A DNA stretch of 64,000 nucleotides, taken from NCBI GenBank assembly GCA_024790105.1, contig GCA_024790105.1_3053.1; one strand, 5' to 3'. This document shows positions 7,808-33,489 of the stretch, piece after piece. A program made the position numbers and the translations under genes. The notes under the pieces are model-generated. The model searched no databases and had not been told where the DNA came from. It saw only the letters and a list, made by a program, of their open reading frames with translations. Numbering within the stretch: position 1 is the first letter of the stretch; each line of letters begins with the position of its first letter. Source of the DNA: a phage.

Positions 7808-8524
7808 ATGAATTATAAACTAATTTATGAAAAGTTAATATCTAATGCTAAATCTCGAAAACTTGATTGCTATACTGAATCTCATCACATTATACCGCGC
7901 TGTTTAAATGGAAGTGATGATGCTTCAAACTTAGTAGATTTAACACCAGAAGAGCACTATGTAGCTCATCAACTTTTAGTAAAAATTTATCCTTCTGAAC
8001 CAAAATTAGTCTATGCTGCTAACATGATGACAGTTTCTACGAAATACGCTAAACGCAACAATAAAACTTTCGGTTGGATTCGTCGTAAACTCTGGGAAAT
8101 AGAAAAGAACAAAGAATTCTCCCAGGAGACACGAAAGAAAATGTCTGATGCAGTAGCTAATAAAGCAAGACTAACTTGTCCTCATTGCGGTAAGTCTGGA
8201 TTAAGCGGGAATATGAATCGTTGGCATTTTGATAACTGCCCAAATCACCCTAATCCTAAAGTTAGACCACCAATGTCTAAAGAACACAGAAATAATATCT
8301 CAAACGGGCTTAAAGCAATCGTTCTTGAAGAAACATCCTGCGAATTCTGCGGAATGATAGGCAAGAAATGCGTTATCGCAGCGCATAGAAATTTCTGCAA
8401 GAAAAATCCAAATGGACGCAAGAAAACTGAAAAGACTGGTACTTGCGTCCATTGCGGTAAAGTTACCACTTTCGGAAATTTATCAAGGTGGCATAATGAT
8501 AACTGTAAATATAAACCTAGCTAA
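7808..8524 (+). CDS. HNH homing endonuclease with three C-terminal Cys-rich repeats
   Basis: HNH core ESHHIIPRCLNGSDDASNLVDLTPEEHYVAH; three repeats of C-x2-C-G-K...RWH-x-DNC; opposite strand to the surrounding early operon. Confidence 0.75.
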   Translation: MNYKLIYEKLISNAKSRKLDCYTESHHIIPRCLNGSDDASNLVDLTPEEHYVAHQLLVKIYPSEPKLVYAANMMTVSTKYAKRNNKTFGWIRRKLWEIEKNKEFSQETRKKMSDAVANKARLTCPHCGKSGLSGNMNRWHFDNCPNHPNPKVRPPMSKEHRNNISNGLKAIVLEETSCEFCGMIGKKCVIAAHRNFCKKNPNGRKKTEKTGTCVHCGKVTTFGNLSRWHNDNCKYKPS

Positions 8525-30328: not shown

Positions 30329-30910
30329 CTAACCGAGCTTTTTAGTTAATTCATTCCAATGTTTTCTGCACAAAGAAACATAAATTTCATCACCAATACA
30401 GATTTGATTACCTTCTTTAACTGGTGTTCCATCTTCCATTAATCGAGCTGTCATAATCGCTTTTTTGCCGCAATGACAGACTGCTTTCAGTTCAATAAGT
30501 TTATCTGCAATCGCTAAAAGTTCTTTAGAACCTTCAAACAATTTTCCAGCGAAATCAGTCCTTAATCCATAAGCCATAACAGGAACATTATATGTATCAA
30601 CAATTCGGCTCAATTGATGTACTTGTTCAGTTTTTAAAAACTGAGCTTCATCTACAAATACGCAATGAATATCTTTTTGTGCTTCAGCCCATTTATAGAA
30701 TTCGAAAATGTCCATATCATCTGTAATAATATTCGCTTCCTGCTTAATTCCAATGCGAGAAACGACTTCACAGACAGAATCGCGAGTATCAATAGCAGGC
30801 TTAAGAACTAATACACTCATTCCACGTTCTTTATAATTATGTGCAGCAGTCAAAAGAGAAGCAGATTTTCCAGCATTCATTGCTGCATAAGTAAAAATTA
30901 AACTCGCCAT
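30329..30910 (-). CDS. tk: Thymidine kinase
   Basis: 193 aa; P-loop AAMNAGKS; zinc ribbon Cys pairs; T4 length. Confidence 0.9.
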   Translation of the reverse strand: MASLIFTYAAMNAGKSASLLTAAHNYKERGMSVLVLKPAIDTRDSVCEVVSRIGIKQEANIITDDMDIFEFYKWAEAQKDIHCVFVDEAQFLKTEQVHQLSRIVDTYNVPVMAYGLRTDFAGKLFEGSKELLAIADKLIELKAVCHCGKKAIMTARLMEDGTPVKEGNQICIGDEIYVSLCRKHWNELTKKLG

Positions 30911-30919
30911 ATCACCTTC

Positions 30920-31105
30920 TTAAAGCGTATTCACATAAGCTATTAATTCGTTTTCTTTCTTATCAAACCGATCAGCAAATTCTTCCTGCTGTTCGGGAGA
31001 TAGCGGGCCATATTCATCATAAAAGGTGTTTGCTTCTGTATGCTCATCTAGAAGTTCATGGATAAGCTCAAACAATTTATCTTTTTGTTCTTTACTTAGA
31101 CTCAT
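30920..31105 (-). CDS. Hypothetical acidic protein
   Basis: 61-aa ORF. Confidence 0.4.
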   Translation of the reverse strand: MSLSKEQKDKLFELIHELLDEHTEANTFYDEYGPLSPEQQEEFADRFDKKENELIAYVNTL

Positions 31106-31271
31106 ATATTAATTTCCAGGAGTTTTAAAATAATTCGCTTTTGCTTAAATATTTCCATAGTTAAATGACCAGTATCTTTTTGACCGATTCCAATGGCAAA
31201 ACCTTTATTAACAGCGAGTTCAATTAAATTATCAAGCTCACGTAACACTTCGTATTGTAACTCAAAACTAT

Positions 31272-31499
31272 TCATTTTGGTTTACCTTCTTTAACGAAAT
31301 CAGGATAAGGATAAAATCCTGAATAAAATCCTTCACCTTTATGATTGATGCATCCTTTATTAGAACAATAGCACCAATAATCGAAATCACAAGCCATTTC
31401 ATCGTTGCATAAAGCAAAAACAACAGGCCACTTACACTTTTCACAGTGGGCATTTTTAAGAATACTAGTTTGGCTCATAACCATGTAACCTTTAAGCAA
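31272..31499 (-). CDS. Cys-rich small protein
   Basis: 75-aa ORF with nine Cys; start uncertain. Confidence 0.35.
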   Translation of the reverse strand: MLKGYMVMSQTSILKNAHCEKCKWPVVFALCNDEMACDFDYWCYCSNKGCINHKGEGFYSGFYPYPDFVKEGKPK

Positions 31500-31687
31500 T
31501 ATTCTTCTACATGTTGTTTACGACCTTTCTTATCAATAAAGGTATATTCAACGAATGTTCCAATGTAGTCTTTATCTACATCATGTGGACTATTAATTGG
31601 ACATTTAGTACGGCAAATGCGTTCCCATTGACGAATAATTTCCACTTTGTTTTTAGGATCAAACGGATGTGGGTAATGTACTTTCAT
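31475..31687 (-). CDS. Hypothetical protein
   Basis: 70-aa ORF. Confidence 0.4.
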   Translation of the reverse strand: MKVHYPHPFDPKNKVEIIRQWERICRTKCPINSPHDVDKDYIGTFVEYTFIDKKGRKQHVEEYCLKVTWL

Positions 31688-32138
31688 AATCCACCACTAT
31701 TAAATCAATATCAGGAGTAAACATGTCGATTAATTTAGAAACCTTATCCCAATCACCGCCAGCAATACCACAACCTATGCGTGGAATATAAATTACTGGT
31801 TTAAACAAAAGGGTTTCTGCCTGTAGATTTAATTCTATCATGCAGTTTACTAAAGCACCATAATCAAGATTAGGACCTGGTTCGTATTGCGTATACAAGT
31901 TATAACATATGCCAAAACCATTAGGTTTATGTTTAAAAACAATAGACATATCACCGAGTTTTTCACGCGAACCATATTCAGTTGTGGTCTTATCTATTTC
32001 TAAAATTTTGGGATAGGCTCTTGCTAATTGACCCGCTACACCTGAACCCATAGTATGAAAACAATTGCACCCGTGCGCAATAATATTACCTTGAAGAAAT
32101 AGGGCGACAATATCGCCCTTGATATATTTTACAATCAT
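31659..32138 (-). CDS. Macro-domain protein (candidate ADP-ribose hydrolase)
   Basis: GDI...NIIAHGCNC...GSGVAGQL...IYIPRIGCGIAGGD aligns by eye with macro-domain motifs GDIT / VNAAN / GGGVDGAI / AFPAISTGVYGYP. Confidence 0.6.
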   Translation of the reverse strand: MIVKYIKGDIVALFLQGNIIAHGCNCFHTMGSGVAGQLARAYPKILEIDKTTTEYGSREKLGDMSIVFKHKPNGFGICYNLYTQYEPGPNLDYGALVNCMIELNLQAETLLFKPVIYIPRIGCGIAGGDWDKVSKLIDMFTPDIDLIVVDYESTLPTSV

Positions 32139-32482
32139 CTAGTACTCAATCCTCGATTATAAGAATCTACCAAACGGTCAACCATTGAATGACAAGCGGC
32201 TTTATCTTTCTCCTCCGCAACTGAACATTCTAAGGTATTCCACTTTTTAGCATATCGTTTTAATAATGTATCGTTTTTGTATCTGCTTGATTTATCTCTT
32301 TCTCCAACTTTATATGCATATATTAATTTCTGCGCAAATTCAGCTTGGCATGCTTTATTTTTCCCACAATAATCTGCCGCAGTGCGGTTTACATATTCTC
32401 TAATTTCAGTATATGATGTATCTGCTGACGCAGAAGCAGAAAATGAAATTAATCCTATACATAAAACCAAAATTTTAGTCAT
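32135..32482 (-). CDS. Secreted protein (T4 vs position)
   Basis: 115 aa with signal peptide; positional only. Confidence 0.4.
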   Translation of the reverse strand: MTKILVLCIGLISFSASASADTSYTEIREYVNRTAADYCGKNKACQAEFAQKLIYAYKVGERDKSSRYKNDTLLKRYAKKWNTLECSVAEEKDKAACHSMVDRLVDSYNRGLSTR

Positions 32483-33020
32483 TTACTATTTCCAAAAGTT
32501 TATTATTTTTAAGGTAATTAGCCTTTTCTAGGACTTCAAAAGCATATTTAGAACCAGCTTTAACATTCCATCCCGAATTATAAGAGGATATTGCTTTTCT
32601 TATATCGCCCTTATGTATATTTAACCAATAAGAAAGTTCAATGTACGCCCAGGAAGCTGAATTGGATCGTTTATTCAACATTCTTTTTATTTCAGCATCG
32701 GTCATATTATAACCAAGTTCCTTAACTCTTGCTCGCATAGTAGGCAAATAATTTTGGAACATTCCGTAGGCGTGATGCTTTGGTTTAGATTTTAAATTAA
32801 CTCCGCCAGAGCTTTCTTGCCATAAAATAGCAGCCATTATATGACCTAATCCGCTCTTGTGGATATTTTTGTGTGTTTTATATTTTCCATCCTTAGAAAA
32901 CTGTTCCCCGAATTGATACGCGTAACGCATGTTATCGAGTTGGACATTACTGAAAGTATGCTCGGAGCTATGTGCCATCATAGAAATAGCCAATAGACCA
33001 GCGAGTAGTGCTTTTCTCAT
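32475..33020 (-). CDS. Lytic transglycosylase-like secreted protein
   Basis: Signal peptide; SLT-like E-S...GMFQ catalytic motif (WQESSGG ... YGMFQ). Confidence 0.6.
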   Translation of the reverse strand: MRKALLAGLLAISMMAHSSEHTFSNVQLDNMRYAYQFGEQFSKDGKYKTHKNIHKSGLGHIMAAILWQESSGGVNLKSKPKHHAYGMFQNYLPTMRARVKELGYNMTDAEIKRMLNKRSNSASWAYIELSYWLNIHKGDIRKAISSYNSGWNVKAGSKYAFEVLEKANYLKNNKLLEIVND

Positions 33021-33027
33021 GCTTACC

Positions 33028-33489
33028 TCATTGAGTTTTAATTACTGCTTTAGAAGCCTTTCCTGGTAAACGACGACTGTTAATAATTGCCATCCTGCAT
33101 TGAAGTAACGGGTTTTTGAACTTCTCATTAGGCTTACAAACCGTAAATCCAAGCCAAAGATTTCCATCTGTGATTTCTAAACGTCCAGGACGATATTCAA
33201 CCCCATCAATAAAATCCTCGTCAATGTCAGGACGCGGAGGCATACTCAGGAATTCATTAACTTCTAAAACATGGTCTTTTATTTTATGGAATAATTCAAA
33301 AACATATGTCTCATCAATCTCCCGTTGAATTGCACGATCAAGAAGATGTTGAGAATATTTTAGATGAAACGATGAGACCCCTGCTGCTTTTGATGCCTCA
33401 CGAATCTCATTGTTAATTTGACGAAACTCCGACTCAAAATGACGACGAAGCTTATTTCGACGGATAAAAACTTCTGTATTGATAGTCAT
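33028..33489 (-). CDS. regB: Endoribonuclease RegB
   Basis: 153 aa, T4 RegB length and sequence as recalled. Confidence 0.85.
   Translation of the reverse strand: MTINTEVFIRRNKLRRHFESEFRQINNEIREASKAAGVSSFHLKYSQHLLDRAIQREIDETYVFELFHKIKDHVLEVNEFLSMPPRPDIDEDFIDGVEYRPGRLEITDGNLWLGFTVCKPNEKFKNPLLQCRMAIINSRRLPGKASKAVIKTQ

Follow-up and report, generated by a model that had tools for sequence, protein, structure and literature searches.

The subject of this report is a small phage gene and, more particularly, the enzyme which that gene appears to encode. It is found in a 64,000-nucleotide (nt) stretch of phage DNA, contig GCA_024790105.1_3053.1 of NCBI GenBank assembly GCA_024790105.1, with that whole stretch described here as 'the window'. 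The gene is the ortholog of phage T4 tk.4, also known as adfM, and it occupies the same genomic slot. Its product is, on balance, probably a glutamine (Gln)-type, ALC1-like macrodomain hydrolase, one for which the likeliest substrate would be thymidine-N3-ADP-ribose as set on phage single-stranded DNA by the toxin DarT2. That substrate is favored for the window's allele because of its orthology with T4 AdfM in combination with the precedent of a bacterial macrodomain protein, SCO6735 of Streptomyces coelicolor. The open reading frame (ORF), its macrodomain fold, its T4 orthology and synteny, and its Gln-type signature all were computed here, and the T4 knockout phenotype and SCO6735 biochemistry are taken from papers. 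The gene as such is already known, its family having been annotated in hundreds of phage genomes and a counter-defense phenotype having been published for its T4 ortholog. What the window carries, though, is the less studied of two common AdfM alleles.

Orthology and fold of the tk.4 product

An earlier note on this DNA described a protein of 159 amino acids (aa) in the tk-regB region. The ORF for it starts with ATG and is read from the minus strand, and both the extent which that note gave and the location, between tk and regB, proved to be exact. Whether T4 possesses an ortholog was there left unconfirmed. It does: The product of T4 tk.4 (NP_049723.1, 155 aa, 'phosphatase; contains A1pp phosphatase motif') is 57% identical to the window's protein over its full length of 155 aa (E=1e-69), and the gene order tk.3, tk.4, vs is the same in the window as in T4 (NC_000866). 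Homologs more generally are found by tblastn in approximately 2,770 phage records from many genera, with those annotations which name them including 'phosphatase', 'macro domain protein', 'Appr-1-p processing protein', and 'RNase III inhibitor'.

Identification of the protein as a macrodomain had been based, in that note, on short segments, i.e., GDIV (residues 8-11), NIIAHGCNC (18-26), GSGVAGQLARA (31-41), and IYIPRIGCGIAGGD (116-129). All of these are present, and profile, structure prediction, and fold search now agree with the identification. The Pfam Macro profile, PF01661, is matched over its positions 2-117 of 118 at 34.4 bits (E=2.4e-8), versus a gathering cut-off of 22 bits, and PHROG_335 is matched at E=1.5e-71. 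With solved macrodomains, phmmer finds BT1257 (1e-10), yeast Poa1p (1e-9), DarG (2e-5), human TARG1 (OARD1; 7e-3), and SCO6735 as well. An AlphaFold2 model, based on an alignment of 53 homologs from which the T4 sequence had been left out, has a predicted local distance difference test (pLDDT) of 94.2 and a predicted template modeling score (pTM) of 0.89. Both that model and a Foldseek search of the PDB point to the three-layer alpha/beta/alpha fold of macrodomains. The search yields 157 matches at E<=0.001, and all 50 of the matches listed (top template modeling scores, TM, of 0.72-0.82) are either macrodomains or designed enzymes with sequences matching macrodomain TTHA0132. The resemblance is judged to be far beyond chance and the ORF product, on these computed grounds, to be a real macrodomain.

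Among macrodomains the protein is predicted to belong to the ALC1/TARG1-like class rather than to MacroD, PARG, or viral Mac1. This is because Foldseek places TARG1, BT1257, Poa1p, the DarG proteins of T. aquaticus and M. tuberculosis, and SCO6735 first (ranks 1-18, TM of 0.7-0.8), with coronavirus Mac1 well behind, that is, only from rank 27. In both PADLOC and NCBIfam the best-scoring family is the DarG N-terminal macrodomain. DarG proper nevertheless was rejected as an identity: The match to NCBIfam NF048014 is 28.1 bits versus an equivalog cut-off of 250 and spans model positions 2-142 of 338 (DarG models being 329-338 positions in length), there is no C-terminal domain, and the DarG Lys80 is replaced. 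TARG1 proper was rejected as well, with both residues of its Lys84/Asp125 dyad absent. A plasmid search for the DarG sequence returned no annotated DarG, and DarG was not among the alignments listed by a PDB search with residues 56-159 alone.

Active-site residues

To place residues, the profile of the 53-member family was aligned by hhalign with single reference sequences. Those of TARG1 and Poa1p were checked against PDB chains (for TARG1, PDB 2LGR), those of DarG came from PDB alignments for which PhiKZ gp104 served as the query, and those of SCO6735 and BT1257 from alignments queried with a homolog on a Streptomyces plasmid. Of the four characterized relatives which were compared in this way, SCO6735 gives the lowest E-value (probability 98.7%, E=3e-16), followed by TARG1 (98.5%, E=1.7e-15), Poa1p (98.3%, E=1.4e-14), and DarG (97.5%, E=8.4e-12).

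All four of these alignments put the segment N80-L-Y-T83-Q84 on the catalytic-Lys segment of DarG (NFPTK80) and TARG1 (LITK84). Gln84 is aligned with DarG K80, with TARG1 K84, and with SCO6735 Q85 (NLYTQ versus NMIGQ), which is to say that, as in SCO6735, Gln is found at the catalytic-Lys position. TARG1 Asp125 falls on Ala126, and thus neither the TARG1 Lys84/Asp125 dyad nor the DarG catalytic Lys80 is present. The active-site Asn22 of DarG does have an equivalent, however, i.e., the invariant Asn25. By hhalign and MAFFT, H22 corresponds to His24 of SCO6735 and His23 of Poa1p, and G23 to Val25 of SCO6735. The residue roles behind these His and Val equivalences are from PMC9411070, and that of the DarG Asn is from PMC13309987.

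Conservation is seen at these same places. Across 53 homologs H22, G23, N25, C26, G33, A35, N80, Y82, and Q84 are invariant, and the GCG.AGG.W core of loop 2 (PRIGCGIAGGDW) is invariant or nearly so. Loop 1 aligns with MGKGVA of DarG and WGKGF of SCO6735. Loop 2 differs only slightly from PRIGCGLAGGTW of SCO6735 and from PRIGCGLAGGKW of BT1257, with PRIGCGIAGGDW aligning to the SCO6735 loop, including its Gly128, and with AHGCNC aligning to AHVCND of that protein. SCO6735 (PDB 5E3B) shares with the window's protein its Gln, the His of an H.CN motif, a near-identical PRIGCG.AGG.W loop, and the status of a single, stand-alone domain. It is, on the other hand, only approximately 25% identical to that protein, and is a bacterial, DNA-damage-inducible protein rather than the product of a phage gene. 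An HMMER alignment with BT1257 pairs NLYTQ instead with HGIYKD, leaving NMIGQ as an insertion. That pairing was judged to be a misalignment because hhalign with SCO6735, a close BT1257 homolog, pairs NLYTQ with NMIGQ, and because Adpp, a phage relative considered below, has NVYGQ.

From these alignments Tk.4/AdfM would appear to be Gln-type, that is, SCO6735- and Adpp-like, as opposed to Lys-type and DarG-like, a point which may be absent from print. The match of Gln84, His22, and Asn25 with both SCO6735 and Adpp should be useful in the planning of biochemistry. In particular, as Gln84 stands in place of Lys, DarG-style Lys-to-Ala mutants would be meaningless for this protein. Lys-type proteins are similar to it in fold and class, and also in a proposed role of undoing DarT2, as can be said of DarG (PDB 5M31, 5M3E, 5M3I) and PhiKZ gp104. 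DarG K80 and gp104 K78, however, lie in a T-K motif, versus T-Q here; DarG possesses a C-terminal DarT-binding domain which the window's protein is without; and gp104 is just marginally similar to the latter in sequence. TARG1 and Poa1p, both among the top Foldseek matches, share the His of the H.C motif, and with Poa1p the full motif (HSCNC) is in common. In Poa1p, though, the residue at the position of Gln84 is Ser, and loop 2 is preceded by a long insertion.

Substrate and competing explanations

The phenotype which bears most directly on function is that of T4. In a HIDEN-SEQ transposon screen tk.4 was the single T4 gene significantly depleted on a DarTG2 host, and a clean T4 tk.4 knockout was sensitized to DarTG2, with the gene then renamed adfM, for anti-DarT factor Macrodomain (bioRxiv 10.1101/2025.11.20.689424). 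That knockout phenotype fits with earlier reports in which T2 and T4 lacking adfN (T4 also lacking adfA) remain DarTG2-resistant, and with the resistance to DarTG2 of all of the T-even phages examined in one preprint. T-even phages stack several anti-DarT factors, namely AdfA, AdfN, and AdfM. As to biochemistry, SCO6735 hydrolyzes thymidine-linked ADP-ribose on DNA with very high efficiency and relieves cells of the toxicity of DarT, its Q85A mutant is inactive, and the backbone position of its Val25 is proposed to hold the catalytic water (PMC9411070). PhiKZ gp104, an 'AdfM' of a chimallivirus, strips DNA in vitro of the ADP-ribose added by DarT2, and is Lys-type (N23/K78; PMC13309987). The earlier note had proposed two roles, reversal of ADP-ribosylation or instead degradation of an immune-signaling nucleotide. 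The former is now reported as counter-defense against DarTG2 for the T4 ortholog, and the latter is unsupported, the nearest activity on a small molecule known from the family being the dephosphorylation of ADPR-1''-phosphate that is considered below.

The mechanism which may be envisaged from these precedents begins with expression of the protein from the vs-tk.4-tk.3 gene string. The protein then would bind the ADP-ribose that the host toxin DarT2 has put on thymidine of the phage's single-stranded DNA. If SCO6735 is taken as the model, the distal ribose would be held by Gln84, the Lys of DarG or TARG1 not being used, and cleavage of the bond would be initiated by a water which the backbone positions at the His22-Gly23 turn. 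Hydrolysis of the N3-C1'' bond would result in free ADP-ribose and replicable DNA, with DarTG2 abortive-infection defense presumably thereby neutralized. As there is no DarT-binding C-terminal domain, the protein would be expected to act on the product of the toxin rather than on the toxin itself.

A number of considerations weigh against this reading. For T4, removal of ADP-ribose from DNA is a proposal, one that in the preprint 'seems likely', and the DarTG2 genetics there concern the T4-type allele only (bioRxiv 10.1101/2025.11.20.689424). Experiments on the window-type allele were not found in the literature. It is only inferred that the window's allele, at 57% identity, shares the substrate and phenotype of T4 AdfM. 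The DNA-holding K34 and K89 of SCO6735 are not conserved, with K34 becoming Ser32 and the K89 region becoming Q-Y-E-P, without Lys. The DarG model scores just 28 bits, in PADLOC as in NCBIfam. Lastly, the closest biochemically characterized relative, at 39% identity, is Adpp, which is an ADPR-1''-phosphate (ADP-ribose-1''-phosphate) phosphatase rather than a DNA hydrolase.

Adpp also is the basis of a competing explanation, to which we give a real if distinctly smaller chance. The protein, that is, could mainly be an Adpp- or Poa1p-like phosphatase, converting to ADP-ribose (ADPR) the ADPR-1''-phosphate that is generated by RES-domain NAD+ (nicotinamide adenine dinucleotide) phosphorylases, such as those of aRES defense or RES toxins. 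Athena gp176, of a Vibrio phage, is 39% identical to the window's protein (E=1e-27), is 98% identical to the Adpp of Vibrio phage Gary, and sits between Adps and Namat. Purified Gary Adpp converts ADPR-1''-phosphate (ADPR-1P), which is an NAD+ breakdown product and not a signal, to ADPR, and it is required to overcome aRES (bioRxiv 10.64898/2026.01.28.702374). It is the one phage member of the family that has been characterized biochemically. That the two belong to the same family is seen also in tblastn record sets of 2,768 versus 2,709, with near-identical genus counts, and in the motifs AH.CNC, N..[TG]Q, and GCG[IL]AGGDW, which the window's allele and Adpp have in common. Indeed, the loop of the window's allele is nearer to that of Adpp (GCGLAGGDW) than is that of the T4 allele. 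The alignment of His22 with Poa1p His23, the high hhalign probability with Poa1p, the long-standing T4 annotation which cites an A1pp motif, and the 'phosphatase' naming of PHROG_335 all point the same way. Adpp, however, is useful solely because NARP1 then rebuilds NAD+ from the resulting ADPR (bioRxiv 10.64898/2026.01.28.702374). In the Gary/Athena NARP1-AP operon Adpp is flanked by Adps and Namat, in contrast to the tk.3 and vs which flank the window's gene, and tblastn with the Athena proteins found no homologs of Adps or Namat in the window (no match at E<0.2). Nor, to our knowledge, does T4 possess homologs of either. The sole phenotype reported for Tk.4, in addition, is against DarTG2, which modifies DNA. 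Phosphatase and DNA-hydrolase activities nonetheless could coexist, since in either case it is a group on C1'' of the distal ribose that is taken off, and both thymidine-ADP-ribose DNA and ADPR-1''-phosphate are relevant as candidate substrates.

Other explanations have less to recommend them. Reversal of protein or RNA ADP-ribosylation, whether as a tuning of the phage's own Alt, ModA, and ModB marks or as an undoing of host toxins that hit proteins or mRNA, is unlikely. SCO6735 and TARG1 do also strip ADP-ribose from acidic residues of proteins, and T-even phages do encode three ADP-ribosyltransferases. Alt and ModA modify arginine, however, and macrodomains of the ALC1/TARG1-like class are not known to cleave the arginine-ADP-ribose linkage. 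The T4 screen, in addition, found tk.4 under DarTG2 only. Very unlikely is that the protein instead serves as a non-catalytic ADP-ribose reader or direct DarT2 inhibitor. Catalytically dead SCO6735, DarG, and TARG1 do still inhibit DarT in vitro (PMC9411070), and the classical catalytic Lys is absent. To argue from the missing Lys to a non-catalytic, or for that matter purely phosphatase-type, protein is nonetheless less persuasive in view of SCO6735, which has an essential Gln at the same position and yet is highly active on thymidine-linked ADP-ribose in DNA. That Gln is invariant here, along with His22 and Asn25, which points to selection for catalysis, and at 159 aa there is no equivalent to the DarT-binding C-terminal domain of DarG. 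Scarcely to be expected, finally, is destruction or sequestration of an ADP-ribose-derived immune signal, e.g., the cyclic ADP-ribose isomers of Thoeris. Its one recommendation is that macrodomains in general have an affinity for derivatives of ADP-ribose. In the literature retrieved, no macrodomain with activity on a cyclic-ADPR-type signal is reported, the conserved residues match those of hydrolases acting at C1'' of terminal ADP-ribose, and no Thoeris link is reported for tk.4 in the 2025 T4 transposon screen (bioRxiv 10.1101/2025.11.20.689424). As a candidate it was rejected, with neither supporting homology nor literature found.

Two tk.4 alleles and their surroundings

The window is that of a Tequatrovirus, with the region 98-99% identical to many Tequatrovirus genomes and best matched by that of Shigella phage Phaginator. 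In comparison with T4 it is tk.4 which stands out. Protein identities to T4 are 100% for rI and rI.1 and 99% for tk, then 93% for tk.3 and 57% for tk.4, and again 99% for each of vs, vs.1, and regB. Divergence is confined to a segment (Table 1) that spans Tk.4 residues ~47-159 plus the first tk.3 codons, with nucleotide identity of 97-100% to either side. The Tk.4 proteins of the window and T4 share AHGCNC and NLYTQ and, as genes, their slot and ATGA coupling to vs, but are strongly diverged over residues ~47-159, including in loop 2. This loop reads GCGIAGGDW in the window, versus GAGIGKGNW (PRIGAGIGKGNW), with its extra Lys, in T2, T4, and T6. GCGIAGGDW matches the consensus seen in the family at large and in both Adpp and SCO6735.

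Table 1. Locations, in window coordinates, of the tk.4 ortholog, its motifs, and nearby features
Feature	Position	Strand	Basis
tk.4/adfM ortholog, coding sequence, stand-alone macrodomain protein, 159 aa	31659..32138	-	ATG-started ORF
Motif A21-H22-G23-C24-N25-C26	32061..32078	-	translation; hhalign, MAFFT
Loop 1, M30-G-S-G-V-A-G-Q37, Gly-rich ADP-ribose-binding loop	32028..32051	-	translation; hhalign
Motif N80-L-Y-T83-Q84	31887..31901	-	translation; hhalign vs DarG, TARG1, SCO6735
Phosphate-binding loop 2, P119-R-I-G-C-G-I-A-G-G-D-W130	31749..31784	-	translation
Divergent segment vs T4, 37-78% nucleotide identity in 60-nt windows	31640..32000	.	MAFFT sliding identity
ATGA, vs stop codon/tk.4 start codon overlap	32135..32138	-	direct sequence reading
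vs (valyl-tRNA synthetase modifier) ortholog, upstream neighbor	32135..32482	-	
tk.3 ortholog, downstream neighbor, 70 aa	31475..31687	-	
tk	30329-30910		
regB	33028-33489		

The tk.4 divergence is, as read from these alignments, an apparent intragenic cassette exchange of a kind common in T-even genomes. The window-type segment occurs, with coverage of at least 80%, in 307 phage records, including RB5, PP01, HY01, and several BASEL phages, with AugustSocin, FriedrichMiescher, and PaulHMueller among the BASEL Tequatroviruses carrying that allele. Tequatroviruses therefore seem to carry two sharply different tk.4 alleles, a circumstance that may be unpublished. Among metagenomic homologs, one (P0005) is chimeric, matching the window's allele exactly over its C-terminal ~85 residues but having a different N-terminal part, which would indicate recombination inside tk.4. 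In another (P0081) a T4-type allele is truncated after ~88 residues (95 aa), and natural tk.4 loss-of-function variants from this appear to exist.

That the two alleles also differ in function is rather doubtful but worth stating. Such a difference could be one of substrate, with thymidine-ADP-ribose DNA as opposed to ADPR-1''-phosphate, or to some other conjugate of ADP-ribose, being acted upon, or instead one of which DarT variants are countered. Were that the case, then a 57%-identity cassette within 97-100% flanks would be a footprint of defense-driven allele swapping, and the published AdfM phenotype, which belongs to the T4 allele, would not simply carry over to the window-type allele.

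The 4-nt overlap between vs and tk.4 is present in T4 coordinates as well, and suggests that translation is coupled within the string of genes vs-tk.4-tk.3. At the other end of tk.4 the start of tk.3 overlaps by 29 nt (31659-31687), as compared with 4 nt in T4, because the window's allele is longer by 4 aa at its C-terminus (STLPTSV versus PLL). It is for this reason that the first tk.3 codons are found inside of the divergent cassette.

Between tk and tk.3, genes tk.1 and tk.2 of T4 are replaced (window 30920-31499), with additional small genes being found at this place in T2 and T6 as well. In the window an ORF of 61 aa (30920-31105) is just 54% identical to T4 Tk.2, and one of 57 aa (31102-31275) has no T4 counterpart in the region. 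A third, at 31272-31499, would encode a small, Cys-rich protein (CEKCKW...C...C.F.YWCYC...C), with a membrane-like ORF at 31268-31453 as an overlapping alternative. Product names in this region of the T2 (AP018813) and T6 (AP018814) records are largely mis-transferred, e.g., vs.6 as 'tail sheath monomer', rI as 'HNH homing endonuclease', and small tk-region ORFs as 'terminase small subunit', and these names therefore are unfit for function calls. The T6 record also has, at the vs.1 position (7936-8166), a coding sequence of only 231 nt that is followed by a gap before regB. As vs.1 is intact, at 181 aa, both in the window (32475-33020) and in T4, it may be disrupted in this T6 sequence.

Homologs are present on bacterial plasmids too, with the coordinates given here being examples from a plasmid search. 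An E. coli 137-kb plasmid record (CP057073.1, 19856-20308) has a 42%-identical homolog with the annotation 'hypothetical'. On several plasmids of Bacillus thuringiensis (e.g., NZ_CP013278.1, 145452-145904) there is a ~30%-identical macrodomain under a gene annotated as 'SLOG family protein', which suggests that macro and SLOG domains are, on these plasmids, either fused or neighbors.

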